Source of the DNA: an uncultured Dehalococcoidia bacterium
GTDB lineage: Bacteria > Chloroflexota > Dehalococcoidia > UBA6926
Reading direction: 5' to 3'
Assembly (NCBI GenBank): GCA_964405845.1
Contig: CAYOPL010000013.1
Span: forward strand, 305-64,304
Length of the DNA: 64,000 bases
Shown: one piece after another, positions 9,789 to 56,813 of the stretch
Layout of the letters: each line of letters starts with the position of its first letter
How positions within the stretch are numbered: the stretch's first letter is position 1
Translations under genes and position numbers: made by a program
The notes under the pieces: model-generated
Seen by the model: only the letters and a program-made list of their open reading frames with translations
Told to the model about the DNA's origin: nothing
Database searches by the model: none

Positions 9789-9946
9789 CCACCAGCCGTA
9801 GAAGATGCGGTTGGGGTGAATCAGAACCGATAATGCAGCGTTTACGGCGACCTCCCAACAAAAACCAAAGCCCGCGAACGGGCGGACTGAATAAGTATAG
9901 CCCCGCTACGCCACCGGGCGGCACAGTCCTGCCGAACGCAGTCAGA

Positions 9947-13892: not shown

Positions 13893-13951
13893 GCGCCACT
13901 GTAGGCGTGGGCGTGAGCCAAACACAAACATAAATGACAGTCGCCTCAGAT

Positions 13952-20933: not shown

Positions 20934-20939
20934 TATACT
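20934..20939 (+). promoter_or_regulatory. TATACT -10-like box 8 nt upstream of the ATG at 20948
   Basis: Read directly: gcgcTATACTtggatgttATG. Confidence 0.3.
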
Positions 20940-20947
20940 TGGATGTT

Positions 20948-22765
20948 ATGAACCGTCCCGCCCAAAAGTCGGGCGTTTGGTATAACGTTCGGATCTTTCT
21001 GCGACTGCAGACCTTTCTTCTGCCGTATTGGCGTCGGGCGACGCTGACGTACGTCCTGCTGTTTATCTCCAGCGCCAGTGCCCTGGTGATTCCGTGGCTC
21101 TTTGGACGAGCAGTAGATCGACTTGTCGAGCAAGCAGCCATAGGCACCATACTCGCCGTCGCCGGGTGGATCCTTGTTGCGGCCATCATTCGCGGAGCCA
21201 CGTCCTACGGCCAAAGCTACTTCAGCCAGGCTGTCTCACAACTCGTTGCCTACGACTTGCGCAACGCGATGTACGACCGATTCCAGCGGCAGAGTTTCTC
21301 ATTCTTCGACACGTCACGGACAGCTGAACTGATGTCGCGGGCGACGGCGGACGTAGAGTCCGTACGCATGCTAATCAGTTTCGCGCTGGTTCGAATCGTG
21401 CAAGTCGCGGTAATGCTCCTGATGGTGACCGTTGTGCTGCTCCAATCAAACTGGCAGTTGGCATTGGTGACCTTGGCCGTCCTGCCGTTTATTGCCTACC
21501 GCACAACGCGAACAAGCCGCCGCCTCCGCCCTGTCTGGCTCTCCGTGCAGCAGGAAATGGCGGCTTTGAGCACCGTCCTCCAGGAAAGCCTTTCCGGAAT
21601 GCGCGTTGTCAAGGCGTTCGGACGTGAAAAAGAGGAGACGGAGCGATTCAACAAGCAGGCGCACGTACTTTATGAGCGCAACATCACGGCCAACGACGAG
21701 CAGGCCCTCAACACCTCTTTAATGACGTTCTCCGTCTACTTTGCCGCGGGCATCCAGCTGCTCTACGGCGGCTACATGGTCATGCAGGGCGACCTCACGC
21801 CCGGACAGCTCACCGCTTTCCTCTTCTATCTGCTGACAATCACGGTTTATATCCGCATGATCGGCTGGCTCGGCAACCAGCTTTCCCGCGCCGTCGCGTC
21901 CGGTGAACGCATCTTTGAAATCCTGGACGCCCGTCCGGAGGTGCGCGAGAAGCCTGACGCTAGGGACAACGCCGTCGTTGCCGGCCGGATCGCATTCAAC
22001 AACGTATCGTTCGGCTACGGCGGGCGGGATGACGTGCTGCAGGACGTGACGTTTGTGGCGGAGCCAGGACAGGTCATCGCCGTGGTTGGGGCGACGGGCA
22101 GCGGCAAGACAACCCTCGTCAGCCTTATTCCGAGGTTCTATGACCCGACACGTGGCGCAGTCGTCATTGACGGCGAGGACGTGCGGAACATGACGCTGGA
22201 TCATCTGCGCGGTTCAATCGGCCTCGTACAGCAGGACGTCTTCCTGTTCTCAGCGACGATCCGTGACAACATCGCCTATGGAGTGCCTGATGCCCCGGAG
22301 GAGGAGATCATCGCCGCGGCCAGCGCCGCCCGCCTTGACAGCTTCATCCGCAGCTTGCCCGACCAATACGACACGTGGGTGGGAGAGCGTGGCATCAATC
22401 TCTCCGGGGGGCAGCGACAGCGGCTCGCCATCGCCCGAACCCTGCTGCTCGACCCGCGCATCCTCATCCTGGATGACTCCCTCTCCAGCGTGGATGCGGA
22501 AACGGAGAGATCAATCCAGCAGGCGCTCGATCGCGTGATGGAGAACCGCACGACAATCGTCGTCGCCCAGCGGTTGGCCAGCGTTCTGCGAGCCGACCAG
22601 ATACTCGTGTTGGATGAGGGCCGTATTGTGCAGCAAGGGACCCACGCAGAGCTTATTGCGTACCCGGGTCCGTACCGCCAGATCTACGAACTGCAACTGC
22701 GCCACCAGGAAGAGGCGTTTGAGACCGCTCCGGATGGGATGACCGTCGGGGGGACGCGGCCATGA
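20948..22765 (+). CDS. ABC exporter, fused permease-ATPase (type I exporter, MsbA/MdlB-like), subunit 1
   Basis: 6 TM helices, then Walker A GATGSGKTT, signature LSGGQRQRLAIAR, Walker B ILILDD. Confidence 0.85.
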   Translation: MNRPAQKSGVWYNVRIFLRLQTFLLPYWRRATLTYVLLFISSASALVIPWLFGRAVDRLVEQAAIGTILAVAGWILVAAIIRGATSYGQSYFSQAVSQLVAYDLRNAMYDRFQRQSFSFFDTSRTAELMSRATADVESVRMLISFALVRIVQVAVMLLMVTVVLLQSNWQLALVTLAVLPFIAYRTTRTSRRLRPVWLSVQQEMAALSTVLQESLSGMRVVKAFGREKEETERFNKQAHVLYERNITANDEQALNTSLMTFSVYFAAGIQLLYGGYMVMQGDLTPGQLTAFLFYLLTITVYIRMIGWLGNQLSRAVASGERIFEILDARPEVREKPDARDNAVVAGRIAFNNVSFGYGGRDDVLQDVTFVAEPGQVIAVVGATGSGKTTLVSLIPRFYDPTRGAVVIDGEDVRNMTLDHLRGSIGLVQQDVFLFSATIRDNIAYGVPDAPEEEIIAAASAARLDSFIRSLPDQYDTWVGERGINLSGGQRQRLAIARTLLLDPRILILDDSLSSVDAETERSIQQALDRVMENRTTIVVAQRLASVLRADQILVLDEGRIVQQGTHAELIAYPGPYRQIYELQLRHQEEAFETAPDGMTVGGTRP

Positions 22766-24642
22766 TGGGCGGCGGTGGCGGAGGAGGCTACGGCAACTAT
22801 GACGGTTGGGACGAGGAGACTCTTGGAGCAGTCTATGACCGGCGCATCCTCGTCCGGCTGATTCCCTACATCGCCCAATTCAAGGTGTGGGCAACCATTG
22901 CCGTCATCGGTATGTTGGCCGCGACATTCAGCAGCGTCGCCATGCCCCTGTTTATCGGCCTCACCGTCGATACTGCCATCGCCACCGGCAACACAGCACG
23001 CCTGGCGTGGATGGCGGGCCTGTTCTTCGGACTCGTCGTAATCAACGCCATCGGTCTCTGGCTCCAATCGCGCTACATGGCCAAGGTCGCGCACGCGATG
23101 CTCGTCAACATCCGCACCCAACTCTTTGGCCACCTCCAGAAGCAATCGCTGAGCTTCTACGACAAGCAGCAGGTGGGACGCCTCATGTCCCGCGTCGTGA
23201 GTGACGTTGAGCAGATTCAGCAGGTCATGACGGGCGGGATCATCGGAACGCTCAGCGACGTACTGACCCTGGTCGGCATCGTCGTCATCATGTTCGTCAT
23301 GGATTGGTCGCTTGCCTCTGTTACGCTCAGCGTCGTCCCTGCCCTGATTGTCATTTCAATCTTCTGGCAGAGGCGGGCGCGAGTGGCATTCCTCCGCGTG
23401 CGCCGCGCTATCTCCGTAGTGAACGGAAGCCTGCAGGAGAACGTTTCCGGCGTGCGCGTCGTCCAGAGCATGAACCGCGAGGACGAGAACATGCGCCGCT
23501 TTGACCAGATCAACTACGACCACCTTGACGCCAACCTGCGCGCCTCCCGCCTGACCGCCGGTATGTTCCCGGCGGTGGAGATCATGGTCGGTATCTCGAT
23601 GGCCGTGGTAATCATCTACGGCGGATGGCAGGTTCTGCAGGGCGCTTTGACGGTTGGCTTCCTGGTGGCGTTCACGTTGTGGGTACAGCGGTTCTTCGAT
23701 CCCATCCGCAATATCACCATGCAGTACACGGAACTCCAACGCGCTATGGCGTCCGGCCAGCGCATCTTTGAGTTGCTGGACACACAGCCGCAGGTCGCGG
23801 ACAAGGAAGGCGCGCAGCCCATACCGCCTATCAAAGGGCGCGTCACATTCGAGAACGTTTCATTCTCGTATGAAGACGACATCCCAGTGCTGCGGAACGT
23901 CTCGCTTGATGCGGAACCGGGCGAGACCATCGCGCTTGTTGGTGAGACGGGCGCGGGTAAGACGACGTTCGTCAGTCTTATCGCCCGCTTCTACGACGTG
24001 ACAAGCGGGCGCATCACCATCGATGGCCATGACGTGCGGGACGTGCAGCACCAGAGCCTTGCCCATCAGATGGGCATCGTCCCCCAGGAACCGTTCCTGT
24101 TCTCCGACACCATCGAGGCGAATATACGCTTCGGGAAACCTGACGCGACGCGCGCGGAAGTGGAGGCGGCGGCACGGGGGGCCGGACTGCACGAAATTAT
24201 CATGCACATGGATAACGGCTACGACACGGAGCTGCAGGAGCGCGGCGCGAACCTCAGCGTGGGCCATCGGCAGCTCGTCAGCTTCGCCCGCGCCATTCTC
24301 GCCGACCCCCGCATTCTGATCCTCGATGAGGCGACGGCCAACATCGACACGCGTACGGAGGCGCGTATCCAGGACGCGCTGCGACGGCTCCTGCCGGGCC
24401 GCACGTCATTCGTCATTGCCCACAGACTCTCCACCATCCGTGAGGCATCGCGAATCGTTGTGATGGACAACGGCTCAATCGTCGAGATCGGCACGCACAA
24501 TCAACTGCTGGCGAATGGCGGCATATACGCGCGCCTCAACGCCATCTCCTACGGCGCGGATCAATCGATGAACGGCCACGCCGCCCCAGCCACTGCTCTC
24601 CCAGCCCCCGCAGGCGGCGCAGAAGATGCAGCAGAACGGTGA
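22762..24642 (+). CDS. ABC exporter, fused permease-ATPase, subunit 2, with a Gly-rich N-terminus
   Basis: GETGAGKTT, LSVGHRQLVSFARA, ILILDEAT. 4-bp overlap with subunit 1 suggests a heterodimeric exporter. Confidence 0.85.
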   Translation: MMGGGGGGGYGNYDGWDEETLGAVYDRRILVRLIPYIAQFKVWATIAVIGMLAATFSSVAMPLFIGLTVDTAIATGNTARLAWMAGLFFGLVVINAIGLWLQSRYMAKVAHAMLVNIRTQLFGHLQKQSLSFYDKQQVGRLMSRVVSDVEQIQQVMTGGIIGTLSDVLTLVGIVVIMFVMDWSLASVTLSVVPALIVISIFWQRRARVAFLRVRRAISVVNGSLQENVSGVRVVQSMNREDENMRRFDQINYDHLDANLRASRLTAGMFPAVEIMVGISMAVVIIYGGWQVLQGALTVGFLVAFTLWVQRFFDPIRNITMQYTELQRAMASGQRIFELLDTQPQVADKEGAQPIPPIKGRVTFENVSFSYEDDIPVLRNVSLDAEPGETIALVGETGAGKTTFVSLIARFYDVTSGRITIDGHDVRDVQHQSLAHQMGIVPQEPFLFSDTIEANIRFGKPDATRAEVEAAARGAGLHEIIMHMDNGYDTELQERGANLSVGHRQLVSFARAILADPRILILDEATANIDTRTEARIQDALRRLLPGRTSFVIAHRLSTIREASRIVVMDNGSIVEIGTHNQLLANGGIYARLNAISYGADQSMNGHAAPATALPAPAGGAEDAAER

Positions 24643-24706
24643 GCCAACACGCGCAAGACACTTATACTGTCAGCAGCGCAATCTGAGTGGGAGAATCGAT
24701 TTGGGA

Positions 24707-25090
24707 ATGACCAGAGTCGACATGACAGTGGCGCAGGTCGACGGATCACGCCCTGTTAGTCTGCATGCGATGGTGGACACCGGCGCCACCTTTTGTATGG
24801 CGCCGCGTTCAACGCTTGAGGGGATTGGGCTTGCGCCAACGGATACGATGCGCTTCAGGATTGCGACTAGGGAGTTTATCGAACGCGCCATTTGCGATGC
24901 TCAGGTCACAATTGAAGGGCGCGTCGGACTGGCGCCCATTATCTTTGGCGAGGAGAACGAGCCGGTTCTGATTGGCGTAATCGCGCTCGAGAGGCTCTCA
25001 TTGGCCGTTGATCCAACTCGCGAGATACTTGTTCCTGCCGACGCGATACTCTACAAGGCAACTCCGCCCACCAGCAGTCAGCTTGAGTAG
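24707..25090 (+). CDS. Single-domain retropepsin-like (clan AA) aspartic protease
   Basis: About 127 aa. The catalytic-type motif AMVDTGATFCMAP (D-T-G-A). Size and motif fit bacterial retroviral-type aspartyl protease domains. Confidence 0.55.
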   Translation: MTRVDMTVAQVDGSRPVSLHAMVDTGATFCMAPRSTLEGIGLAPTDTMRFRIATREFIERAICDAQVTIEGRVGLAPIIFGEENEPVLIGVIALERLSLAVDPTREILVPADAILYKATPPTSSQLE

Positions 25091-25094
25091 CCTG

Positions 25095-25658
25095 CTAACC
25101 CTTCAAGTACTCTGCCAGCCGTTCCAGCGCCGCTTTCCAGTAAGCCCGCCGAGCCTCCACGTCATCCGTACTGACCAGCTTTGACTGCATCACCGTGATG
25201 CGACTCTTGCTGTCACCATTCGCGTAGTAGCTGATATCGAGGCTTGTTTCAGTGCCGTCACCGTCCGTCCATGTCGCGCGGGTTGTTTTCTCGGGCGTGT
25301 CCTTGCGAACCGTGATCGGCGCCTCCGGCAGCCACTGCCCGCGGTGTGAGAGATCGGCGAACGCGCCATAGAGTTCCGCCAGCGGCAAGGGGAGTGTCTT
25401 GCTCACACTGACCTGGTAGCCGCGCGTAGTCTGATACCGCTCCCGCATCCCGCGCGCCCGCTCATAGTCGACGGTCACATGCTGGCTCCACCACGGAGAG
25501 ACGGCATGCTCCTCCCGGAGCATCGCGGCGATCTCCTTGTGCGTCAGGTCCCGCGCCCCCGCCGCATCCAGGATGGAGTTCCATTCCTCCGGCGTCTTGC
25601 CGGTGGCCCTAACCACAGCCTCCGGCGATGCTTCAGAACGACTCTTGCGTGTTGTCAT
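25095..25658 (-). CDS. Hypothetical protein (DUF4287-like N-terminal region plus C-terminal domain)
   Basis: 187-aa ORF. ATGKTPEEWNSILDAAGARDLTHKEIAAMLREEHAVSPWWSQ resembles DUF4287 family proteins. Confidence 0.5.
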   Translation of the reverse strand: MTTRKSRSEASPEAVVRATGKTPEEWNSILDAAGARDLTHKEIAAMLREEHAVSPWWSQHVTVDYERARGMRERYQTTRGYQVSVSKTLPLPLAELYGAFADLSHRGQWLPEAPITVRKDTPEKTTRATWTDGDGTETSLDISYYANGDSKSRITVMQSKLVSTDDVEARRAYWKAALERLAEYLKG

Positions 25659-25742
25659 CCAATAGGCCTCCGCTATCTGCTAACCATTTACAGTTTAACG
25701 GCTACTGATATCGAGATAGAGGCGATTGCGACAACTTTCACA

Positions 25743-26438
25743 TTGACGCCCACGAAAGGCAATCGTACTCTTGAAATTGATCCGACCGACTGGTCAGTCG
25801 GTTTTGTATGGAGGACGAACATCTCAACGGTTTCAGACGGCGGCAAGGCTGCCACTCGCGAGCGCATTCTCGAAGCTGCCGCACAGGTCTTTGCCGACTC
25901 CGGTTACCACGGCGCAAGCGTCGATGACATCGCCACCGCCTCCGGCGGCTCCAAGGGCGGAATCTATTTCCATTTCCCCGGCAAGCGCGAGATCTTCTTC
26001 GCACTCGTCAATCGATTCGCCGATCGGCTGCTGTCCGATGCGCATCAATCAATCGAAAGCCAAACCAGCGGTGTTGAGCAGGCCGGCGCGGTTATTGAAG
26101 CGACGCTTCAGACCTTTGCGAACCATGCCCGGCTCGCCAAGGTGCTGATGGCCGTCGGCCTTGGCCCATCCTTTGATGAGCCGCTGCTGACTCTCCATGA
26201 CCGGTTCGCGGGCTTGATTCGTGAGCGACTAGACGCCGCCGTCGCTGATGGCTCAATCCCGCCGCTTGATACAACCCTCGCCTCCTACGCGTGGATGGGG
26301 GCCCTCAATGAAATCATCCTTCGATGGCTCTACACAGGAGAGCCATCCCCGCTCACATCCGCAGCGCCGCAGTTGAAGTCAATCCTGCTTTCAAGCGTGG
26401 GCGTGAGCAAGGCATCCACTGGCACGGAGGCTGACTGA
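25743..26438 (+). CDS. TetR/AcrR family transcriptional regulator. Start uncertain: no in-frame ATG or GTG near the conserved HTH; TTG at 25743 is proposed.
   Basis: TRERILEAAAQVFADSGYHGASVDDIATASGGSKGGIYFHFPGKREIF is a canonical TetR N-terminal HTH. Confidence 0.7.
   Translation: MTPTKGNRTLEIDPTDWSVGFVWRTNISTVSDGGKAATRERILEAAAQVFADSGYHGASVDDIATASGGSKGGIYFHFPGKREIFFALVNRFADRLLSDAHQSIESQTSGVEQAGAVIEATLQTFANHARLAKVLMAVGLGPSFDEPLLTLHDRFAGLIRERLDAAVADGSIPPLDTTLASYAWMGALNEIILRWLYTGEPSPLTSAAPQLKSILLSSVGVSKASTGTEAD
25786..25803. promoter_or_regulatory. Candidate TetR operator: 8-bp inverted repeat ACCGACTG-gt-CAGTCGGT
   Basis: Perfect palindromic arms read directly. The site lies about 35 nt upstream of the TetR HTH-coding region. 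Confidence 0.45.
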
Positions 26439-26440
26439 CC

Positions 26441-27916
26441 ATGGCAGAGGCGTATCGAGACCTCAGTGAGTTCATCAAATTCCTTGAGGGACGGGGTGAA
26501 CTCAAGCGCATCATTGCGCCCGTCACATGGGATTTGGAAATCACAGAGATTACCCAACGCGTCCTGCGTGAGGGCGGCCCTGCCCTCCTCTTTGAAAACG
26601 TCGAGGGTTACGCGGACACGCCGGTGCTTATCAACATGTATGGCACTGAACAGCGCGCGGCGTGGGCGCTGGGCGTGGAGAAACTGGACGAGTTGCCCGC
26701 GCAGATCGAGAAGATGATGGCGATGGCGCAAGGCGGCCCGCCCGAAGGATTGATGGGCAAGCTGCGTATGCTGGGCGACCTGGTCAAGCTTGGACGCATC
26801 GGGCCGCGCACTGTGGAGCGTGAGGACGCGCCCGCGCAGGAAGTCATCATGCAGGGCGATGACGTCGATCTCCTCTCCCTGCCCATTCTCAAGACGTGGC
26901 CGCAGGACGCAGGTCGATACATTACGTTGCCCCTCGTCATCACGAAAGGCCCTGACACCGGCACCCACAACCTCGGCATGTACCGCATGCAGGTCTATGA
27001 CAAGAACACCACGGGAATGCACTGGCAGACCCACAAGGTCGGCACGCAGCATGAACGCGCGTCGGCAGAGCGCGGTGCGGGACGCATGGAGGTCGCGGTA
27101 GCGCTGGGCGGCGATCCGGCTCTCATTTGGGCCGGGTCCGCCCCGTTGCCCGCGGATGTCAGCGAGTACGTGCTTGCGGGTTTCCTGCGCGGCCAACCCG
27201 TTCCCGTCGCTAAAGGCATCACCGTCGATCTGGATGTGCCGGCGCAGGCCGAATACATCATTGAGGGCTACGTCGATCCATCAGAACGGCGTCTGGAGGG
27301 CCCGTTCGGAGATCACACCGGCTACTACTCCATCCAGGACTCGTATCCCGTCTTTCACGTCACCGCCATCACCCATCGCCGCAAGCCCATATACCCAACC
27401 ATTGTCGTGGGCCGCCCACCCCAAGAGGACTATTGGATGGGGGTTGCCACGGAACGGCTCTTCCTGCCCTTAATGCGATTGATGCTGCCTGAAATCGTGG
27501 ATGTTCACATGCCCGCGGAGGGTGTCTTCCACAACCTCGTCCTCGTCTCCATCAAGAAGGAGTACCCCGGCCACGTGCAGAAGACTGTGAGCGGCATGTG
27601 GGGTCTCGGCCTCATGTCTCTCGCCCGCGCAATCGCCGTCTTTGACGACGACGTGGATATCCATGACCCCTCAGAGGTGGTGTGGCGGCTGTCCAACAAC
27701 GTCGATCCACGACGGGACATCTTCTTCGCCGACGGGCCGATTGACGATCTTGATGTTGCGTCTCCAACTGCGCGCGTCGGCAGCAAGATTGGAATTGACG
27801 CCACGCGCAAGTCCGGTGAGGGCGAGATGGGTGAGCGGCAGTGGATGCCGGACATCACCATGGACCCGGAGATGGTTGAGCAGGTGACGCGGCGCTGGAA
27901 GGAATACGGAATCTGA
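26441..27916 (+). CDS. UbiD family decarboxylase (prFMN-dependent)
   Basis: 491 aa. The UbiD family N-terminus YRDLSEFIKFLEGRGELKRI is conserved, and the family is conserved over the whole length. Confidence 0.85.
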   Translation: MAEAYRDLSEFIKFLEGRGELKRIIAPVTWDLEITEITQRVLREGGPALLFENVEGYADTPVLINMYGTEQRAAWALGVEKLDELPAQIEKMMAMAQGGPPEGLMGKLRMLGDLVKLGRIGPRTVEREDAPAQEVIMQGDDVDLLSLPILKTWPQDAGRYITLPLVITKGPDTGTHNLGMYRMQVYDKNTTGMHWQTHKVGTQHERASAERGAGRMEVAVALGGDPALIWAGSAPLPADVSEYVLAGFLRGQPVPVAKGITVDLDVPAQAEYIIEGYVDPSERRLEGPFGDHTGYYSIQDSYPVFHVTAITHRRKPIYPTIVVGRPPQEDYWMGVATERLFLPLMRLMLPEIVDVHMPAEGVFHNLVLVSIKKEYPGHVQKTVSGMWGLGLMSLARAIAVFDDDVDIHDPSEVVWRLSNNVDPRRDIFFADGPIDDLDVASPTARVGSKIGIDATRKSGEGEMGERQWMPDITMDPEMVEQVTRRWKEYGI

Positions 27917-28812
27917 TGGATTCCGTCGGACGCCCCCCGCTCCCACGCCCCTGGTCCTTTATGGGCCGTCTTGGCATCATGCTCGATTCCATCCGGTTCG
28001 AGCACTCCATCTTCGCCCTGCCGTTTGCTTACCTCGGCATGATTCTCGCCGCTGGCGGCTGGCCGACGCTCTCACAATTCATCTGGATCACCGTGGCAAT
28101 GGTTGCCGCGCGCACCGTTGCCATGAGCGCAAACCGCCTCATTGACCGCGAGATGGACGCGGAGAATCCCCGCACGGCCATGCGCGCCCTGCCCTCCAAG
28201 CTCCTCCGCCCTTCCGACATGCTCGGCATGCTGCTGGTCAGCCTTGTAATCTTCTTCTTTGCCGCATACATGCTGAACACGCTTGCGCTCATACTCGCGC
28301 CCGTCGCGGCCATCATCGTCATTACGTATTCCTACGCCAAGCGGTTCACGTGGACGGGGCACTATTGGCTTGGTTTCGCTGACGGCATCGCGCCCGCGGG
28401 CGGCTGGATCGGTGTCGCCGGGGAACTGCCGCTGGAGGCTGTCATTCTCGCCATGGCCGTCACAACGTGGGTGGCCGGATTCGATCTCATCTACCAGTGC
28501 ATGGATTACGACTTCGACATTCCACGCAAGATTCACACAATCCCCGTCAAATGGGGCATTGCCGCAGCGTTGCGGTGGGCGCGCGTAACCCACTTCCTGA
28601 CAATCGCGTTCCTGGTCGCGCTTGGAGTGATGATGAGCCTTGCGTGGCCGTACTACATCGGCGTTGCCATCGCCGCCGCTCTGCTCGCATGGGAGCATTC
28701 GCTCGTCAAGGCGGACGATTTCTCCCGCGTCACCATCGCGTTCTTCAATATCAACGGCGTCATCGCAATCATCGTCTTTATCTTTACCGCAGTCGCCGTC
28801 CTGATGGGGTAG
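27916..28812 (+). CDS. UbiA family aromatic prenyltransferase
   Basis: Polytopic. NRLIDREMDAENPRT (Asp-rich motif I) and a second Asp-rich motif near YQCMDYDFD. Confidence 0.85.
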   Translation: MDSVGRPPLPRPWSFMGRLGIMLDSIRFEHSIFALPFAYLGMILAAGGWPTLSQFIWITVAMVAARTVAMSANRLIDREMDAENPRTAMRALPSKLLRPSDMLGMLLVSLVIFFFAAYMLNTLALILAPVAAIIVITYSYAKRFTWTGHYWLGFADGIAPAGGWIGVAGELPLEAVILAMAVTTWVAGFDLIYQCMDYDFDIPRKIHTIPVKWGIAAALRWARVTHFLTIAFLVALGVMMSLAWPYYIGVAIAAALLAWEHSLVKADDFSRVTIAFFNINGVIAIIVFIFTAVAVLMG

Positions 28813-28815
28813 CGC

Positions 28816-29493
28816 ATGATGCAGACGCAGCGAGAGTCGAATCAAGCCCCCGTGATCGTCGGTATCTCCGGCGGCAGCGGGGCGGCCATCGCCAAACGCA
28901 TCATCGACTCTCTGCTGGAGGCTGACACACCTGTGGTCTGCACCATCACGTCCGGAGGACGACAGGTGTGGGCGCAGGAGATGGATGAGCCGTTCTCATG
29001 GGCTCTCGACGAGTGGTCGGCCAGTGACTGCTTCTCTTTCTACACCTCCAAACAGCTTGGCGCGCCGATAGCCAGCGGCGGAATCCCGACGCGAGGAATG
29101 ATTGTTGCCGCGTGCAGCATGGCGACAGTGGCGGCCATTTCTGTTGGCCTCGGTGACAATCTCCTTCGCCGAGCGGCGGACGTCACCATCAAGGAACGTC
29201 GCCCCCTGGTGCTCATCCCTCGTGAATCGCCCTTGTCCGCCATCCATCTGGACAACATGAAGCGACTGGCGGAACTGGGCACTACGATTCTCATGCCCGC
29301 CCCCGCCTTCTATCTGAAACCGCGCACAGTCGATGAAATCATCGATTATTTCGCGGCACGGGCGCTCAACGCCATTGATTCCACAACATTCCCGCTGCCC
29401 GCCTCTCTGCAATATGAGGGAATGGGCGGCAATGAGGCGCTCAATCAATTTGCGGACAAAGAAGCTGAAGACATGGATTTTGAGGAGGAGTAG
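28816..29493 (+). CDS. ubiX: UbiX-type flavin prenyltransferase (prFMN synthase)
   Basis: VIVGISGGSGAAIAKRIIDSLL...PLVLIPRESPLSAIHLDNM is typical of UbiX/Pad1. Confidence 0.85.
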   Translation: MMQTQRESNQAPVIVGISGGSGAAIAKRIIDSLLEADTPVVCTITSGGRQVWAQEMDEPFSWALDEWSASDCFSFYTSKQLGAPIASGGIPTRGMIVAACSMATVAAISVGLGDNLLRRAADVTIKERRPLVLIPRESPLSAIHLDNMKRLAELGTTILMPAPAFYLKPRTVDEIIDYFAARALNAIDSTTFPLPASLQYEGMGGNEALNQFADKEAEDMDFEEE

Positions 29494-29495
29494 TC

Positions 29496-30497
29496 GTGAA
29501 ACTACGTCGTTTAGGTTGGGTTTTTGCCGTTCTTGCGGTGGCGGCCATCACCGTTCTTGGGATGGCGTGCGATGCCTTTGCGGAAGACACGCCAACCCCC
29601 GTGCCCCCCACACCCACGCCTGAAGTTGACGACACGCCGATTCGCGTCGGGCTGCTGCCCATCATTGATAGCGTGCCGTTCTACCTTGCGGAGGAAGAGG
29701 GCCTCTTTGAGGCCGCAGGGCTAAACGTTACCTTTGAAACATTTACCAGTGCCCTGGAACGCAACGTGGCGCTCGAAACCGGCGCCATCGACGGCCAACT
29801 CGCAGACCTGATCGCCACGGGATTGATCAACGGTGAGAGCCACAAGGTTTCGATCGTCAAGACGACATATCGCGCCACTGGCGACGTGGCAATGATCGCC
29901 CTGGTGGCCGGGGCGGACAGCGGTATCGAGTCGCCTGCAGATCTGGAGGGCAGGAGCGTTGGCATCTCCACCAACTCCCTGATCGAATATCATCTTGATC
30001 TGTACCTGGACGACGCAGGACTTGCCCGCGATTCCGTTGAGAAGACGGAGGTCGCTGCGATCCCGGTCCGCATGGAGCTGCTGTCGCAGGGACAGTTGGA
30101 CGCTGCAGTGCTGCCAGAGCCGCTCATCACGCTTGCCGTGAACGCGGGAGGAACAGTCATCCTTGATGATCGCCAGAGTCGTCTCGGCATGAGCGTGCTT
30201 GAGTTCAACGTTGATTACCTCGTGAACCACGAAGAAAACGTGAAGAAATTCCTCGCAGTCCATGAGGAGGCGGTGCAGCGAATCAACGCGAATCCGGATC
30301 AGTACGCGTACCTCCTACCGGAGAAGGCCCGCCTTCCGGAATTCCTTGTTGGGATCTTCAACGTTCCGCCATTCCCCAGCAATGATGTTCCGACTGCTGC
30401 TGAGACACAGCAGGCCTCAGATTGGCTCCTTGAAAAGGGGTTGATAGACCAGGGCAAGGGCTACCGCGAGTGGGTTGACCAGAGGTTCATTTCTTAA
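29496..30497 (+). CDS. ABC transporter substrate-binding lipoprotein, NMT1/THI5-like (NitT/TauT family)
   Basis: Signal peptide with lipobox LGMAC, PT linker, then the SsuA/ThiY-like fold IRVGLLPIIDSVPFYLAEEEGLFE. Starts 3 nt after the ubiX stop. Confidence 0.7.
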   Translation: MKLRRLGWVFAVLAVAAITVLGMACDAFAEDTPTPVPPTPTPEVDDTPIRVGLLPIIDSVPFYLAEEEGLFEAAGLNVTFETFTSALERNVALETGAIDGQLADLIATGLINGESHKVSIVKTTYRATGDVAMIALVAGADSGIESPADLEGRSVGISTNSLIEYHLDLYLDDAGLARDSVEKTEVAAIPVRMELLSQGQLDAAVLPEPLITLAVNAGGTVILDDRQSRLGMSVLEFNVDYLVNHEENVKKFLAVHEEAVQRINANPDQYAYLLPEKARLPEFLVGIFNVPPFPSNDVPTAAETQQASDWLLEKGLIDQGKGYREWVDQRFIS

Positions 30498-30529
30498 AGA
30501 CCTTCCCGCAAACGAACCGGCCGGCCGAG

Positions 30530-31303
30530 ATGTCTGAACAGAAGCCGATCGTAGCCCTCGGGGACGTGACGTTCGCGTACCCCGGGGGCACAGCGGTTCT
30601 TCGAGAGTTCTCCTGGGAGATGTCCGCCGGTGAATCGTGGGCAATCATCGGCCCGTCCGGGTGCGGCAAGACCACCCTGCTCTACATCCTTGCCGGCTTG
30701 CGCCTCCCTGATCAAGGCGATGTAATCGTCGCCGGAGAGCCCATCAGCGGCCCCCGCCGTGACATCGGCCTCATACTCCAGGATCACGGACTCTTGCCCT
30801 GGGAGACCGCCCTCAATAACGTCGGTATGGGCCTGCGCCTGCGAGGCGCCCCCGGGCGTGAATGGCGCTCAGAAGCGCAGTCATGGCTTGACCGTCTGCG
30901 GTTGGGTGAGTTTGCAAGGCGCTTTCCCAGCCAACTGTCCGGTGGGCAGAAGCAGCGCGTCGCCATCGCACGCACACTCGCAGTATCACCAACACTTTTG
31001 CTCATGGATGAACCGTTTAGCGCGCTTGACGCCCTGACCCGTGAGTCGCTGCAGCTCCTGGCCCTTGATCTTGGGATTGCGCGTGGCCGCAGCGCCGTTC
31101 TTATCACCCATGACATCAACGAGGCCGTCATGCTCGGCAACAAAATCCTGATTATGGGCGCGGGGCCGGATGCCCCGACAACAATTATCGAAAACCCGGG
31201 TGCAGGACGAGAGGGTTTCATCGGCTCTGACGACTTCAGGGAACTTGCCGCCAACGTGAGATCCAGGCTCAACACCAGCCCGGAAGCAGCCGCCGACAGA
31301 TGA
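30530..31303 (+). CDS. ABC transporter ATP-binding protein (NitT/TauT family)
   Basis: GPSGCGKTT, LSGGQKQRVAIAR, LLMDEPFSALD. Confidence 0.85.
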   Translation: MSEQKPIVALGDVTFAYPGGTAVLREFSWEMSAGESWAIIGPSGCGKTTLLYILAGLRLPDQGDVIVAGEPISGPRRDIGLILQDHGLLPWETALNNVGMGLRLRGAPGREWRSEAQSWLDRLRLGEFARRFPSQLSGGQKQRVAIARTLAVSPTLLLMDEPFSALDALTRESLQLLALDLGIARGRSAVLITHDINEAVMLGNKILIMGAGPDAPTTIIENPGAGREGFIGSDDFRELAANVRSRLNTSPEAAADR

Positions 31304-32082
31304 AAGAATCGGTGCTTGGCCGGGTGTGGCATCGCGCAGCATCACTCAGTGGCGGCGTCATCGCCGTACTGGCAGCGCTATTTGTGTGGCAGATTGTGTC
31401 ATGGATTGTAAACTCCAACATCCTGCCCGGCCCCGTGCCCGTCAGTCTGACGTTTATTGATCAACTCGATGAAGGCCTGCTGGGGCATGCGACGGTCAGC
31501 GCTTATCGCGTCGTGCTTGCCATCGCAATTTCGATTGCGATCGCGGCACCCCTAGGCCTCATACTCGGCACGAACGCCAGGCTCTATACGCTGTCCGCGC
31601 CCATCATCTATCTCAGCTACCCAATCCCCAAAATCGTCGCGCTCCCGGTGATTCTGCTCTTGCTCGGACTGGGCGACGCGAGCAAAGTGACGATGATCGC
31701 GCTCATCCTGTTCTTCCAGATTCTGATTCTCGTGCGCGACGAGGTCCGCACTGTGCGCCCGGAACTGGTCCTCTCGGTGCGTTCGCTCGGCGCGAATCGT
31801 CTCCAGCTCTTGCGCTTTGTCTTCATGCCTGCTTCGCTGCCCGGGCTCTTCACTGCCCTTCGTGTCAGCACTGGCGTTTCCATTGCCGTTCTGTTCTTCG
31901 TTGAGAGCTTCGGCACGCGGCAGGGACTTGGATACTACATCCTTGTTGAATCATGGGGGCGGCTGGCCTACGAGGAAATGTACGCAGGTGTGATAGCGAT
32001 GGCCCTGCTTGGATTGGGCGTCTACTACGCAGTTGACGGTATTGAACGCCGTCTGACCCGTTGGAATCGGGACGATCGATAG
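31300..32082 (+). CDS. ABC transporter permease (NitT/TauT family)
   Basis: 6 TM helices. 4-bp overlap with the ATPase gene. Confidence 0.8.
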   Translation: MKESVLGRVWHRAASLSGGVIAVLAALFVWQIVSWIVNSNILPGPVPVSLTFIDQLDEGLLGHATVSAYRVVLAIAISIAIAAPLGLILGTNARLYTLSAPIIYLSYPIPKIVALPVILLLLGLGDASKVTMIALILFFQILILVRDEVRTVRPELVLSVRSLGANRLQLLRFVFMPASLPGLFTALRVSTGVSIAVLFFVESFGTRQGLGYYILVESWGRLAYEEMYAGVIAMALLGLGVYYAVDGIERRLTRWNRDDR

Positions 32083-32096
32083 CTTATAGCAGCGTG

Positions 32097-33086
32097 CTAG
32101 GCGGCATCCGGATCAATGTTGAGCCAGCTGGGGTTCGAGTCATTGGCAGGATTGTTGGTGAGGCGAACCGCCTCCGCCCCTTCGCTGAGGCTCCACAAGT
32201 AAATCTCATTGTTGCCGTCACGATCGCTCACAAAGGCGATGGTCTGGCCGTCCAGCACAGTGGACCATGACGGCTGCATGCTGTTGTAGGGAGCATCCGG
32301 TGTCCGGTCCGCGCTTCTACGCCCTTGGGACGAAACATACCAGAGGTGAATGGCGCTGCTGGGATTCGTCAGAGCAGAGGCATTGGATTGCAGGATGACA
32401 TCCCGGCCATTTGGGGCATAGTCCGGGTAATCCTCAATAGCGGTCGTCGCCCTGAATTCTCCTGTCGGCCTCAGGAAGGTCTCTTGCGGGACAACACGAA
32501 GGAACTGTCCCCCGCTATCGAGGATGTGAACATCAATACTTTCAGACGAAAGGCTGGCAGACACTGCTATCTCTTCGCCGTCCGCATTCATTCGGGGATT
32601 CCAGTAGGAATAGGCCGTGTCCTGCCCAAGCAAGTTCATGCCTGTATCATCGTCAGCCATTCCTTGTTCACCCATCCAATAGAGCTGAGGGCGACCGGAC
32701 GCGAGGCCCATAGTCCAAAGCGTGACAAGCAGCCGATCTCCTTCCGGATACCAGGTTATTGACTCGATTGTTCCGCCTGCCCGGCCATTCGTGAGGTTGA
32801 TTTCATTGCCCTCTTCAGTGTCCACCATGATAACGTCAGTCAAATTTCCCGAACGCCTTACAAACGCCACCTTGGTTCCATCAGGGTTGACGGCAGGATA
32901 AACGTCATCAGAGGGATGATCAGTGACCTGTGTCTCCATGGTGCCGTCGTGTTGAATTGAGTAAATGTCCCAATTCCCATTCCGGTCAGACTGGAAATAG
33001 ATTGTATAACTGGGTTCTCCGTCGCAACCGACCAAGGCGATGCTGCCCACAATGAACGCCGCCACGATAGCCAACCACCGTCTCAT
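32097..33086 (-). CDS. TolB-like beta-propeller (PD40 repeat) lipoprotein
   Basis: Lipobox LVGCDG. Repeated units YFQSDRNGNWDIY, AFVSDRDGNNEIY and AVNPDGTKVAF are PD40-like. Start taken at ATG 33086. Confidence 0.6.
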   Translation of the reverse strand: MRRWLAIVAAFIVGSIALVGCDGEPSYTIYFQSDRNGNWDIYSIQHDGTMETQVTDHPSDDVYPAVNPDGTKVAFVRRSGNLTDVIMVDTEEGNEINLTNGRAGGTIESITWYPEGDRLLVTLWTMGLASGRPQLYWMGEQGMADDDTGMNLLGQDTAYSYWNPRMNADGEEIAVSASLSSESIDVHILDSGGQFLRVVPQETFLRPTGEFRATTAIEDYPDYAPNGRDVILQSNASALTNPSSAIHLWYVSSQGRRSADRTPDAPYNSMQPSWSTVLDGQTIAFVSDRDGNNEIYLWSLSEGAEAVRLTNNPANDSNPSWLNIDPDAA

Positions 33087-33233
33087 GGATTGAAGCGCCT
33101 CCCCGCACTGGCTAATGATATAGGCACTTTCCCTCAGCGATAAACTTAGCACCAAATGACCCCGGCTGTAGAGCCGGGGTCATTTTCAGTTGCAGTGATG
33201 GACGCTCGATTGGAACCGACACGTCCCCGAGAG

Positions 33234-34169
33234 TTAGCGTCCTCGCAACCGCGGATCCAGCACGTCCCGCAGAGCGTCTCCAAACACATTGAATCCGAAC
33301 ACCGCCATGCTGAGAGCAAGGCCGGGGAACACAATGATATGCGGAGCAAGCTCGGCAAAGTCGAGCGCGCTGGCGTTGAGCATGCCACCCCAGGACGGGT
33401 GCGGTTCAGGCACTCCCAGACCGAGGAAGCTCAGCGATGCCTCTGTTGTGATTGCAGAGCCCAAGCGGCCGGTCACAACGATGATCCACGGCGCCATCGA
33501 GTTAGGCATGATGTATCGGAAAATGAGCCGGAGGTGGCTGGCTCCGATGGTCCGCCCGGCCAGTACATAATCCGTCTTCGTTACGGATAGTGCCTGACCG
33601 CGCACAACGCGAATCATAGCGGGCAACGCCGGAATTGAAATCGCGATGATCGTGACCTCAATGCTGAAGGTCTGAAGGATGGCGACAATGGCCATCGCAA
33701 GAATCAGGCCCGGGAACGCCTGCAGAACGTCAACGAGGCGCTGACCCAGCAGATCAACCCAGCCGCCGAAGTACGCGCTCGTGATTCCAAGGATGCCGGC
33801 AATGGTTCCCGCTCCCATCGCTACTGCGAAGCCGACATACAGGGAGATCTGGGCTCCGTACACAATCCTCGTAAACAGATCACGCCCGTATCGGTCTCCA
33901 CCCAGCCAGTGTTCAGCGCTCGGCCCAACCAACTGCGCCGATATCTGCGAGGCGTAGCGGTAATCAATAAATCCGTCATAGTTTGAGGCGTTGGCCGTCA
34001 GAAACTGCCAGATCGGGGCAGTCGCCGCCATAAGGATCAGGAGGGCCACCAACCCCAATCCCACTAATCCGAGCGGTCGCCTCCGCCACAGCAGCCAGTT
34101 GCGCTGCAGGATGTTTCGCCGTCGCCGTTGACCGATAATCTCTGCGACCGCTTCAGTCTGTGCCGCCAT
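33234..34169 (-). CDS. Peptide/nickel-type ABC permease, DppC/OppC-like
   Basis: An EAA-like loop is present (ALSVTKTDYVLAGRTIGASHLRLIFRYIMPN). Confidence 0.8.
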   Translation of the reverse strand: MAAQTEAVAEIIGQRRRRNILQRNWLLWRRRPLGLVGLGLVALLILMAATAPIWQFLTANASNYDGFIDYRYASQISAQLVGPSAEHWLGGDRYGRDLFTRIVYGAQISLYVGFAVAMGAGTIAGILGITSAYFGGWVDLLGQRLVDVLQAFPGLILAMAIVAILQTFSIEVTIIAISIPALPAMIRVVRGQALSVTKTDYVLAGRTIGASHLRLIFRYIMPNSMAPWIIVVTGRLGSAITTEASLSFLGLGVPEPHPSWGGMLNASALDFAELAPHIIVFPGLALSMAVFGFNVFGDALRDVLDPRLRGR

Positions 34170-34251
34170 CTCTCTGCTCCCTCTGAGTGCCGTCTACTCG
34201 TTTTTCAGCCTGAACGTGGCTGGCTCTCTTCTCACACGCCTGCCAGACGGT

Positions 34252-35211
34252 TTAGTACCGAATCCTTGGGTCAAGCCAACCGTACAGTAGGTCCACGCCC
34301 AGATTCGCAGCAACAACGGCAAAGCCGGTAAGCGTCACAACGAGCTGAACGACTGGGAAATCTCGCTGGTTGATGGAGTCCACCATCATGCGGCCAATGC
34401 CCGGAAGACCGAAGACCTGTTCCGTGACGACGAGGCCGGTCACGGTAATCGGCAGGAAGATGCCGATTAGGGTGAGCACCGGAATCAGGGCGTTCCGCAT
34501 GGCGTGGCGCACGATAATCACGCGCTCCTTGAGACCCTTGGCGCGCGCCGTGCGGATATAGTCCTCCCGCATGACCTCGAGCATTGTCGCTCGCATCATG
34601 CGTAGCGGAACACCCATCAGGAATCCAAGCCCGATAATCAGCGCGGGCCAAATCAACTGCGCCAAGTTGGCAATCGGGTCTTCCCAGATGGGGATATATC
34701 CCTGCCGGGGAATCCAGTCAAACATCCGCACAAAGATGAGAATCAGCATCATTCCGCTCCAGAACGTCGGGACGGAGATGCCGAGGATCGCGATGCCGCG
34801 AATGAGGTAATCGAAGAATGTGTCCTGCTTGAGGGCTGCGACGACCCCGCCGGCAATCCCCAGGATGCTCCCGATGATGAGACCCATCAAACCGACCTGG
34901 AGACTAAGGGGAGCCTTCCGTGCAATCAGCCGGTCCATGTCGGCGTTGTAGAAGAAGGACTTGCCAAAGTCGAGCGTGAACAGCCCATAGATCCAGCCCA
35001 GGTACTGTTCATAGAGCGGTTTGTTTAAGCCTAGCTCTGTGCGAATTCGCTCAAGCGCCTCGGGGTCAATGCCTCCGCCGCCTTCGCCGCCGCCAAGCAT
35101 CATGATGGCCACGTCTCCCGGCGCGATGCGCATGATCAGAAAGACCACGATTGTCACGCCAAGGATTGTCGGCACCGCCAACAAAATACGGCGTATTACA
35201 TATGCCCACAT
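34252..35211 (-). CDS. Peptide/nickel-type ABC permease, DppB/OppB-like
   Basis: MWAYVIRRILLAVPTILGVTIVVFLIMRIAPGD is a canonical DppB N-terminus. Confidence 0.8.
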   Translation of the reverse strand: MWAYVIRRILLAVPTILGVTIVVFLIMRIAPGDVAIMMLGGGEGGGGIDPEALERIRTELGLNKPLYEQYLGWIYGLFTLDFGKSFFYNADMDRLIARKAPLSLQVGLMGLIIGSILGIAGGVVAALKQDTFFDYLIRGIAILGISVPTFWSGMMLILIFVRMFDWIPRQGYIPIWEDPIANLAQLIWPALIIGLGFLMGVPLRMMRATMLEVMREDYIRTARAKGLKERVIIVRHAMRNALIPVLTLIGIFLPITVTGLVVTEQVFGLPGIGRMMVDSINQRDFPVVQLVVTLTGFAVVAANLGVDLLYGWLDPRIRY

Positions 35212-35439
35212 CTGCTTTCGCCCCTCCCCGTAGGCTACAAGCCAGCCTGCGTCACTAGTAAACGTGCCATCGCTTGCGCCACGGCTCGTTGCCTGTGTTT
35301 CGCACCATGCTATGGATGCCCCCTACCCATGTCAAGCATTTCACCGCCCGCCCTGGGGGATTTGCGGCACGTCGTCCCAAAGTAAGTTACCTTCGGGACG
35401 ACCTTTATTTGGCTCGGATGCTTGCAACATCCCCATGGT

Positions 35440-36399
35440 CTAGTAGCGGATGCGCGGATCGAGCCACCCGTAAAGCATGTCCACACCGAGATTCGCCATG
35501 ACGACGGCAAAGCCGGCTAGCGTCACAACGAGTTGAACAACCGGGTAATCCCGCTGGCTAATCGCATCCACCATCATGCGGCCGACACCAGGCAGACCAA
35601 AGACCTGCTCTGTCACTACGAGTCCCGTCACTGTGATCGGCAAGAATATGCCAATCAGCGTCAGCACAGGGATGAGAGCGTTGCGCATCGCGTGACGGAC
35701 GATGATGACCCTTTCCTTAAGGCCCTTGGACCTCGCGGTACGCACATAGTCTTCACGCATAACCTCCAGCATGGTGGCCCGCATCATGCGGAGCGGCACC
35801 CCCATGAGGAAGCCGAGGCCGATTATCAACGCAGGCCACACCAGCTGCGCCAGGTTGGCGATTGGGTCTTCCCAGAGGGGGATGTAGCCCTGCCGCGGAA
35901 TCCAGTCAAACATCCGCACAAAGATCAGGATGAGCATCATCCCGCTCCAGAATGTCGGAACGGAGATGCCGAGGATTGCAGTGCCGCGAATGATGTAGTC
36001 AGTAAGCGTGTCCTGCTTGAGAGCCGCGATAACGCCACCCACAATGCCCAGAAAGCTGCCGAATGCTAGCCCCATCAGCCCAACTTGCAGGCTCAACGGA
36101 CCCTTTCGAGCAAGCAGCGTTGACATCTCCGCGTTGTAGAAGAACGACCGGCCGAAGTCCAGTGTCAGGATGCCAAAGAGCCAATCAAAGTACTGTACGT
36201 AGAGTGGCCTGTTCAGTCCGAGTTCCTCACGAACACGGTCGAGGGCGGCCTGATCGAAAGAACAGTCACCACCTGGCCCGCAGATTATCATCAGCGCCAG
36301 GTCGCCCGGCGCGACCCGCATGATCAGAAAGACAACGACTGTAACGCCCAACAGTGTCGGTATTGCCAGCAACAGCCGGCGCACAATGTATGCCCACAT
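35440..36399 (-). CDS. Peptide/nickel-type ABC permease, DppB/OppB-like paralog
   Basis: MWAYIVRRLLLAIPTLLGVTVVVFLIMRVAPGD. The C-terminal half is nearly identical in protein sequence to the 34252-35211 gene but differs at many synonymous sites. Confidence 0.8.
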   Translation of the reverse strand: MWAYIVRRLLLAIPTLLGVTVVVFLIMRVAPGDLALMIICGPGGDCSFDQAALDRVREELGLNRPLYVQYFDWLFGILTLDFGRSFFYNAEMSTLLARKGPLSLQVGLMGLAFGSFLGIVGGVIAALKQDTLTDYIIRGTAILGISVPTFWSGMMLILIFVRMFDWIPRQGYIPLWEDPIANLAQLVWPALIIGLGFLMGVPLRMMRATMLEVMREDYVRTARSKGLKERVIIVRHAMRNALIPVLTLIGIFLPITVTGLVVTEQVFGLPGVGRMMVDAISQRDYPVVQLVVTLAGFAVVMANLGVDMLYGWLDPRIRY

Positions 36400-54324: not shown

Positions 54325-54384
54325 TCAGCACTTGCCCGCAACACATAGACGGGCGCATAGTAGCGGCGATTGGGGGGAGTGGCT

Positions 54385-56796: not shown

Positions 56797-56813
56797 GAAA
56801 ACTTGGGGGAACC

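Follow-up and report, generated by a model that had tools for sequence, protein, structure and literature searches.

What might a set of quinone enzymes gain from sharing an operon with a regulator and an import system? The question is raised by a locus in a 64,000-nucleotide stretch of DNA from an uncultured Dehalococcoidia bacterium (64 kb; the whole stretch is hereafter called the window). Here, seven same-strand genes (25821-32082, plus strand) encode, in this order, a TetR-type regulator (tetR), a UbiD-family decarboxylase (ubiD/mqnL), a UbiA-family polyprenyltransferase (ubiA/mqnP-like), a UbiX-type flavin prenyltransferase (ubiX/mqnM) and the substrate-binding protein (SBP), ATPase and permease of an ATP-binding cassette (ABC) importer. 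On balance we favour the view that these genes form a TetR-autoregulated operon in which the importer is joined to the final membrane steps of the futalosine-type route to menaquinone (vitamin K2), and the importer is a strong candidate for a long-sought uptake system for menaquinone ring precursors. A wider proposal, to which we give even chances, is that here, for the first time, an uptake system has been identified for the soluble naphthoate head group of menaquinone, importing 1,4-dihydroxy-2-naphthoate (DHNA) where it is linked to MenA and 1,4-dihydroxy-6-naphthoate where it is linked to MqnP, that such systems are widespread in Chloroflexota, Desulfobacterota and Spirochaetota, and that the permease, which in many lineages is fused to the prenyltransferase, hands the ring directly to this enzyme.

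Quinone enzymes and importer in one operon

The decarboxylase (26441-27916; 491 residues), which belongs to a family dependent on prenylated flavin mononucleotide (prFMN), carries the Pfam domains UbiD_N, UbiD and UbiD_C and scored 610.8 bits on TIGR03701 (mena_SCO4490), the equivalog model of the menaquinone biosynthesis decarboxylase with a cutoff of 495.9. It remained below the cutoffs for true UbiD (433 vs 788) and VdcC (268 vs 650) and far below those for phenylphosphate carboxylase. The polyprenyltransferase (27916-28812; Pfam UbiA, 178 bits) found its best NCBIfam match in MqnP_DT (329 bits, cutoff 430), with MqnP_SCO4491 at 269 bits (cutoff 420); it passed TIGR01475 ubiA_other (299.7 > 180.8) and reached 108 bits on the proteobacterial UbiA model TIGR01474, for which the cutoff is 275. 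The third enzyme (28816-29493; Pfam Flavoprotein), a prFMN synthase, passed TIGR00421 ubiX_pad (157.6 > 108.9). Because of the scores on TIGR03701, the MqnP models and TIGR00421 we read the trio as the MqnL/MqnP/MqnM late futalosine module. Judged by sequence, membership of the decarboxylase in MqnL and the UbiX-type nature of the third enzyme are certain, and membership of the UbiA protein in MqnP is probable. These scores support the reading of inducible uptake, prenylation and decarboxylation of an aromatic acid, with MqnL/MqnP-like late steps as a candidate, that a preliminary description of the locus had offered. Genes for mqnA, mqnE/mqnB, mqnC or mqnD were found neither in the window nor in the flanks of related loci, and the window held no other menaquinone genes.

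The SBP gene (29496-30497) starts with GTG and encodes a member of the NitT/TauT family with the NMT1/SsuA fold (Pfam NMT1 and NMT1_2). Its product carries a signal peptide, a GMAC lipobox-like motif and a Pro/Thr-rich linker, and for these reasons we take it to be an extracytoplasmic lipoprotein and not an enzyme with a periplasmic binding protein fold such as Thi5 or MqnA/MqnD. The adjoining TauB/SsuB-like ATPase (30530-31303; Pfam ABC_tran) matched best the NCBIfam model of the taurine ATPase (202 bits, below the cutoff of 357), and the permease (31300-32082; Pfam BPD_transp_1) is TauC/SsuC/SaoP-like. All components of a NitT/TauT importer, namely an exported NMT1/SsuA-fold SBP, a TauC/SsuC-like permease and a TauB-like ATPase, are present in one operon. 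The SBP itself missed the sulfonate cutoffs (SsuA_fam, 114 < 163.5; taurine SBP, 40 < 304; PRK11553, 23 < 299). Its AlphaFold2 (AF2) model reached a predicted local distance difference test (pLDDT) score of 89.4, and the nearest solved structures in a Foldseek search were TauA, SsuA, Thi5 and ThiY (13-21% identity, template-modelling (TM) score 0.6-0.8), with TM-scores of 0.7-0.8 to TauA (6SSY) and SsuA (2X26) at ~20% identity. PqqT was matched as well (profile E ~1e-9; Foldseek E ~1e-14 to 1e-15; 18-20% identity). Firm clustering of the SBP with ThiY, which the preliminary description had named as evidence against a link to aromatics, was not seen: ThiY (3IX1) matched the SBP family profile at E=2e-6, far behind SsuA, and a gathering-score scan of the entire window against Rfam reached zero families. 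Riboswitch control of the ThiY/RibY-like kind was rejected on the same scan, as the window contains no thiamine pyrophosphate (TPP) or FMN riboswitch.

Intergenic gaps and overlaps within the seven-gene block measure 3 nt or less, except for a single 32-nt gap between the SBP and ATPase genes and the 4-nt overlap (ATGA) of the ATPase and permease genes. The tetR gene ends at 26438 on the same strand as ubiD, and the junction TGAccATG leaves 2 nt between them. The stop of ubiD and the start of ubiA share one base (TGATG, at 27916), ubiA and ubiX are 3 nt apart (TAGcgcATG), and ubiX is separated from the SBP gene by 2 nt (TAGtcGTG), with GGAGG 6 nt upstream of the SBP GTG. Most of what the preliminary description had said about this layout held: the ORF listing places UbiD, UbiA, UbiX, SBP, ATPase and permease at its coordinates, Pfam and NCBIfam return its families, the overlap at 27916 and the 3-nt gap after 28812 can be read from the sequence, and a TetR gene directly precedes ubiD. 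The second 3-nt gap, after 29493, is in fact 2 nt long, and the importer genes, described as gap-free, do overlap between ATPase and permease but not between SBP and ATPase.

A consensus scan of 24500-33500 returned two promoter-like sites only, one of them within ubiA (28514-28541). Matches occurred at chance frequency and no promoter- or terminator-like match fell on any gene junction, including the 2-nt junction between ubiX and the SBP gene, where separate signals had been put forward as potential evidence against a common operon. Division of the operon by internal promoters or terminators was therefore rejected. The GC content is ~0.60 throughout and uniform with the flanks, so that there is no sign of recent insertion.

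Linkage of the importer to menaquinone prenyltransferases

SBP relatives found in the protein search came mostly from Chloroflexota and bore generic names or none. The closest chromosome (OZ242203.1) is a Dehalococcoidia metagenome-assembled genome (MAG) whose proteins are 94-98% identical across the block; the isolate names of several relatives resemble sponge or coral sample labels. A scan with an SBP alignment, using one genome per species, yielded 41 loci to which the window proteins were compared by tblastn. The full block from tetR to the permease gene was present in close Dehalococcoidia loci, and most of it was kept down to ~50% SBP identity, with tetR dropping out in some loci and ubiX not detected in one (L027). 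In total, ~30 Dehalococcoidia genome loci keep the block, and SBP-ATPase-permease follows mqnL-mqnP(-mqnM) in all Dehalococcoidia loci with sufficient flank. The arrangement also occurs at greater distance: a Syntrophorhabdaceae MAG (L037) carries UbiD-UbiA-SBP with an SBP 32% identical to that of the window, and two metagenome contigs (L044 and L050; SBP 37-39% identical) carry UbiD-UbiA-UbiX-SBP-ATPase-permease with UbiD proteins that pass TIGR03701. In L044 the block is directly followed by a UbiE/MenG methyltransferase gene.

A metagenome scan with a mid-distance SBP alignment provided 80 further loci. One of them showed UbiD-MqnP-SBP-ATPase-permease, and in five (L072, L081, L082, L093 and L096) a single ORF of ~550 residues joins a TauC-like permease (residues ~8-249) to an MqnP-type UbiA (residues ~258-548). 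When one such fusion was compared with the protein database, the best 120 of 120 clusters carried both PF00528 and PF01040, at 52-98% identity and ~545 residues. They derive from Desulfobacterales, Desulfatiglans, Desulfatirhabdium, Syntrophorhabdaceae and Spirochaetota and are named only 'UbiA-like polyprenyltransferase', '4-hydroxybenzoate polyprenyltransferase' or 'SsuC'. In all four fusion contexts inspected, SBP, ATPase and fusion genes were followed by UbiD; UbiX was present in three of the four and UbiE in one. A further locus (L025) had been flagged as a fusion merely through a stop-to-stop ORF artefact and is not a true one. The UbiD proteins that accompany fusions are ~605 residues long, ~115 more than the MqnL of the window (L132, 12953-14773; L133, 12268-14082; L134, 12386-14215).

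Hidden Markov model (HMM) searches of all fetched loci revealed that more distant importers also adjoin a UbiA-family gene. In three Anaerolineae loci this gene is MenA (TIGR00751, 134, 237 and 145 bits vs a cutoff of 102), and in four Spirochaete loci MenA is the best family with a score below the cutoff; the SBPs of these MenA-adjacent importers are 30-38% identical to that of the window. In 11 metagenome loci SBP-ATPase-permease is directly followed by UbiE and MenA in either order, and both proteins passed their curated cutoffs in the loci tested. TetR lies directly upstream on the same strand in 4 of these 11. One Spirochaete-type locus (L047, 4847-13660) encodes component I of heptaprenyl-diphosphate synthase, a MenA-like protein and the importer; beyond these lie ApbE, encoded on the opposite strand, a Pyr_redox_2 protein of 695 residues and a polyprenyl synthase. 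Two polyprenyl-diphosphate synthase genes are present in this locus. Its gene content is reminiscent of the Listeria locus for extracellular electron transfer based on flavin and demethylmenaquinone (DMK).

To see how general the linkage is, we built a neighbour-joining tree of 127 SBPs, which carries no support values. The window SBP falls into a large clade in which, with L127 as the one exception, a MenA-type, MqnP-type or fused gene lies no more than 4.5 kb away in each locus with sufficient flank; in two further large clades no UbiA-family gene lies within that distance. Single-linkage dereplication at 60% identity left 29 informative SBP clusters, 18 of which were linked to a UbiA-family gene within 4.5 kb (9 to MenA, 7 to MqnP and 2 as true fusions) and 11 were not. 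A neighbourhood census of the importers without a nearby UbiA gene revealed neither a common neighbour nor a TetR. The flanks of the 29 linked loci contained seven ORFs with a TetR domain, each from a different locus. Early genes (MqnA/D, MenB-F) were absent both from the recurrent neighbour families of these loci and from five inspected contexts. The linkage occurs upstream, downstream, divergently, convergently and by fusion in at least three phyla, and inherited synteny is therefore an insufficient explanation. The gene arrangement is more than chance, because it is conserved in Dehalococcoidia and recurs in other phyla in different orders and as a fusion. The link to aromatics suggested by the preliminary description is strengthened by these homologous importers, which adjoin or fuse with MqnP- or MenA-type prenyltransferases across phyla.

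Some SBP homologues (P0061, P0077, P0078 and P0086) carry an extra C-terminal domain, either cytochrome c (P0061; L049, 1224-2438) or fasciclin. P0061 branches beside a MenA-linked SBP, and a haem domain on a binding protein would fit a redox-active ligand.

The control region and the surroundings of the operon

The region upstream of tetR was aligned from 15 related Dehalococcoidia loci. Four short elements are fixed in this alignment, while the surrounding sequence drifts: a -35-like box, a TAnnnT motif, a palindrome and GGAGG. The -35-like box TTGACG (25743-25748, plus strand) has an invariant TTGAC in the 15 loci with diverging flanks and is followed after 17 nt by a -10-like box (25766-25771, plus strand), TACTCT in the window and TAGAGT in most relatives, of which TAnnnT is kept and which the strict consensus promoter scan did not pick up. 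Downstream of this box and ahead of the Shine-Dalgarno sequence, where the transcription start and the 5' untranslated region (UTR) are expected, lies an 18-bp palindrome, ACCGACTG-GT-CAGTCGGT (25785-25802), whose core CGACCGACTGGTC-GTCGGT is invariant or nearly so in 15 of 15 loci. TetR operators typically lie where this palindrome does, after the -10 box and before the ribosome-binding site. The palindrome occurs as a single copy in the window, where 0.03 matches are expected by chance, and we propose it as the candidate TetR operator, with ACCGACTGGTCAGTCGGT as the candidate target sequence. A helix-turn-helix protein of the TetR_N type together with a palindrome at its own promoter constitutes the architecture of an autoregulated operon. 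TetR control is thus supported, at the level of sequence, by a conserved promoter and a candidate operator beyond mere adjacency.

The Shine-Dalgarno sequence GGAGG of tetR (25810-25814, plus strand) has four of five bases invariant and the fifth kept in 14 of 15 loci (GGGGG in L016). The gene itself (25821-26438; Pfam TetR_N, 57.7 bits; TetR_C_24, 27.4 bits) has orthologues that are 74-95% identical in close relatives and 50-61% identical in L023, L025 and L027. Its start is unusual. In the window no in-frame ATG, GTG or TTG lies between the operator and the helix-turn-helix; the ATC at 25821, 6 nt after GGAGG, is the sole conserved in-frame start candidate in the alignment (ATT in L015), and tetR probably begins at this non-canonical codon. 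Three other starts were rejected. The mechanical ORF begins with an ATG at 25479, which overlaps an opposite-strand DUF4287 gene and leaves 130 residues before the helix-turn-helix, the latter beginning at ORF residue 130. The ATG at 25808 lies in another frame and is not kept in relatives. The TTG of the -35 box at 25743 shares the tetR frame in the window, yet in L028 and other relatives it does not, so that its conservation concerns the DNA element and not a start of translation. On related contigs, gene callers placed the tetR start upstream, so that the gene runs through promoter and operator.

Downstream, the operon meets the convergent gene of a PD40 beta-propeller protein (32097-33155). 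Upstream lie two half-transporter genes of an ABC exporter (20939-22765 and 22762-24642), MsbA/CydDC-like and below every curated cutoff. Synteny places the pair upstream of the operon in every close relative, and in L021 and L031 (60-64% identical) it immediately precedes mqnL on the same strand, without an intervening tetR. The pair may be part of the functional unit of the operon or may reflect mere lineage synteny. Further genes of the window include, on the minus strand, four tandem consecutive MFS transporter genes (8505-13931) and, within 33234-36399, tandem 319-residue Opp/Dpp-type permease paralogues (34252-35211 and 35440-36399) adjoined by an OppC-like permease (33234-34169), with no SBP or ATPase seen in the part examined. 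After the gene for a CrtC-like protein of the carotenoid 1,2-hydratase family with two lipocalin domains (16880-18046) come those for an ECF sigma factor and for what is probably its anti-sigma partner, a DUF5667 protein (18896-20886). At 53134-58004, acyl-CoA dehydrogenase genes lie on either side of a gene (54370-56796) whose 808-residue product has two CoA-transferase family III stretches. An SRPBCC/polyketide-cyclase-like protein and a class I methyltransferase are encoded with a 4-nt overlap at 37642-38882 and kept in relatives; the methyltransferase (38127-38882) was rejected as the missing MenG, having no NCBIfam match and no UbiE Pfam domain.

Substrate, rival explanations and significance

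Which compound does the importer take up? The one partner that all linked arrangements share is a naphthoate prenyltransferase, from one menaquinone pathway or the other, which argues for a dihydroxynaphthoate head group as the substrate and against a flavin, a sulfonate or a pyrimidine. The likeliest substrate here is 1,4-dihydroxy-6-naphthoate, and DHNA in the MenA-linked systems. MenA decarboxylates its substrate during prenylation, and the MenA version therefore needs no UbiD or UbiX. Since operons with MenA and UbiE lack UbiX and UbiD, the linkage tracks the prenyltransferase and not UbiX.

Gene content, tight spacing, conservation, the promoter and candidate operator, and the linkage and fusion across phyla can be read from the sequences; what we infer is the ligand, the induction, the channelling and whether the system serves obligate salvage or rather recapture and supplementation. 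In this model, TetR would bind the conserved palindrome just downstream of the sigma-70-like promoter until released by an aromatic ligand, which probably is the compound taken up or one derived from it; the presence of TetR genes in MqnP- and MenA-type versions fits ligand-induced expression. From outside the cell, the lipoprotein SBP would capture the naphthoate head group (in the likeliest case 1,4-dihydroxy-6-naphthoate) for import by the TauC-like permease and the ATPase. MqnP would then add the polyprenyl tail at the membrane, MqnL would remove the carboxyl group with prFMN supplied by MqnM/UbiX to give demethylmenaquinone, and a MenG/UbiE methyltransferase encoded elsewhere would complete the quinone. 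Where permease and prenyltransferase are fused, the imported ring might be handed directly to the membrane enzyme, and the frequently co-operonic MenG/UbiE would round off a 'ring in, menaquinone out' module.

Several observations weigh against this interpretation. The UbiA protein misses the curated MqnP cutoffs, and even the late futalosine steps as such have been derived largely by genomic prediction (PMC4746308). The SBP sequence alone does not prove a naphthoate ligand. Aromatic and charged residues kept in the SBP family (F71, F83, E88, D104, Y165, R192, E208, W310 and Y323) are equally conserved in the 11 clusters without a nearby UbiA gene, so that the proposed ligand gains no independent support from the sequence. 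When specificity-determining columns were sought between linked and unlinked and between MqnP- and MenA-linked SBPs, almost none discriminated; only position 62 (F or L) separates the latter two groups. Their presumed ligands are different isomers, yet judged by sequence the SBPs are nearly indistinguishable, and the whole family may share one ligand class. The SBP tree, as said, is without support values. Our view of early genes covers the window and related flanks, so that salvage is a possible role. The fusion is common in menaquinone-dependent Desulfobacterota, where pure salvage would be odd if the ring is made de novo, and its abundance in menaquinone-dependent sulfate reducers cautions against pure auxotrophy.

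Might the ring be a different one? UbiA, UbiD and UbiX are the first enzymes acting on 4-hydroxybenzoate in ubiquinone synthesis, and the importer could be coupled to the prenyltransferase for uptake of this or another hydroxy-aromatic acid, from which the trio would make another prenylated phenol or quinone. The UbiA protein scored 301 bits on the 4-hydroxybenzoate octaprenyltransferase model PRK12888 vs 329 on MqnP_DT, both below cutoff, some fusion proteins bear the corresponding database name, and new quinone pathways based on UbiA, UbiD and UbiX continue to be discovered (PMC11874023). We nevertheless give this explanation only a small chance. UbiD passes the menaquinone-specific TIGR03701 in the window as well as in L044 and L050, TIGR01474 gives UbiA just 108 bits, sister importers have the DHNA-specific MenA, together with MenG/UbiE, as partners, and the linked operons carry one methyltransferase and no hydroxylases. 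A catabolic or detoxifying unit is highly improbable. It would take up a phenolic or aromatic acid, decarboxylate it non-oxidatively in the manner of VdcCD or of phenolic-acid decarboxylases and sense the toxic acid through TetR. UbiD/UbiX pairs with their own regulators and transporters do decarboxylate aromatic acids in many bacteria, and TetR-family regulators are typical of xenobiotic responses, but the VdcC and phenylphosphate carboxylase scores lie well under their cutoffs. Moreover, a membrane polyprenyltransferase stands between ubiD and ubiX and is the partner most consistently linked or fused to the importer, and MenG/UbiE methyltransferases and polyprenyl-diphosphate synthases accompany the importer elsewhere. 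Detoxification of a hydroxy-aromatic acid, a further suggestion of the preliminary description, is disfavoured because a menaquinone naphthoate head group is the likelier substrate than a generic hydroxy-aromatic acid.

The substrate could also be unrelated to the ring, being taurine or another sulfonate, the thiamine pyrimidine (ThiY-like), or riboflavin or FMN for UbiX (RibXY-like), with the position of the importer a matter of synteny or cofactor need. SsuA, TauA, Thi5 and ThiY are the closest curated or structural relatives of the SBP, sponge-associated bacteria use taurine, UbiX consumes FMN, and 11 of the 29 informative SBP clusters have no UbiA gene nearby. Against this stand the sulfonate and taurine equivalog cutoffs, all missed by far, the lack of a TPP or FMN riboswitch in the window and the fusion of the permease to UbiA itself; in addition, synteny alone does not suffice for a linkage found in at least three phyla upstream, downstream, divergent or fused. 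An unrelated substrate therefore has, in our estimate, a slim chance, and we continue to favour import of a menaquinone ring precursor.

The UbiD-UbiA-UbiX trio and the NitT/TauT kind of transporter are known already. As the MqnL/MqnP/MqnM late module, the trio was named for SCO4490-SCO4492 of Streptomyces coelicolor by Ravcheev and Thiele 2016 (PMC4746308). The window has the same three families, contiguous and in the order UbiD-UbiA-UbiX, and its UbiD passes the SCO4490-based TIGR03701; unlike in Streptomyces, its trio shares one operon with TetR and a full SBP-dependent ABC importer, and its UbiA scores below the curated MqnP cutoffs. With TauABC/SsuABC the importer has in common the three-component architecture, the SBP fold and the best matches of permease (TauC/SsuC) and ATPase (TauB). 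Its partners, in contrast, are quinone prenyltransferases and not sulfonate monooxygenases or dioxygenases, its permease can be fused to UbiA, and its SBP, at ~20% identity, misses all curated sulfonate and taurine cutoffs. ThiXYZ/ThiY (for HMP/FAMP) and RibXY (for riboflavin) likewise employ an NMT1/THI5-like SBP to salvage a cofactor precursor and are typically riboswitch-controlled, whereas the window is without an Rfam match, resembles ThiY weakly and combines quinone genes with TetR. PqqT (PDB 9B1U, 9B1V and 9OOZ) shares the SBP fold family, and its salvaged ligand PQQ, an aromatic carboxylated quinone cofactor, sets a precedent for quinone-cofactor salvage; at 18-20% identity and with another ligand and genomic context it is not an orthologue.

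The closest physiological parallel is DHNA cross-feeding, which occurs in lactic acid bacteria, Listeria and group B streptococci. Genomes with only menA and menG have been proposed to salvage DHNA (Ravcheev and Thiele 2016, PMC4746308). There, as proposed here, an exogenous soluble ring precursor would feed the late membrane steps, and the sister operons indeed combine SBP-ATPase-permease with UbiE and MenA; the window differs in using the futalosine-type MqnP/L/M and not MenA. The importer in these systems is unassigned (PMC4746308, PMC10746273): according to Ravcheev and Thiele 2016 menaquinone-precursor importers 'remain to be annotated' (PMC4746308), and a 2023 study of DHNA use called the uptake routes 'yet to be identified' (PMC10746273). 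Here, a candidate importer lies within the operon. In the freely accessible literature we found neither an importer for DHNA or dihydroxy-6-naphthoate nor a description of a permease-UbiA fusion. What appears to be new is that an importer family is coupled to menaquinone prenyltransferases in a dedicated and conserved manner, sometimes by fusion, together with the substrate that this coupling implies.

Microbial exchange of menaquinone precursors such as DHNA is well documented physiologically. The locus and its relatives offer a testable importer candidate with a soluble SBP, a three-gene transporter and a TetR/operator pair that could be used as a biosensor. If our interpretation is true, genomes with 'incomplete' quinone pathways could be read as those of salvagers, which would improve metabolic reconstruction, and many ~545-residue proteins named 'UbiA-like polyprenyltransferase' would be explained as permease fusions. 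It would further be relevant to the late futalosine steps, which still await proof, and would provide a molecular basis for quinone cross-feeding in sponges, sediments and digesters.

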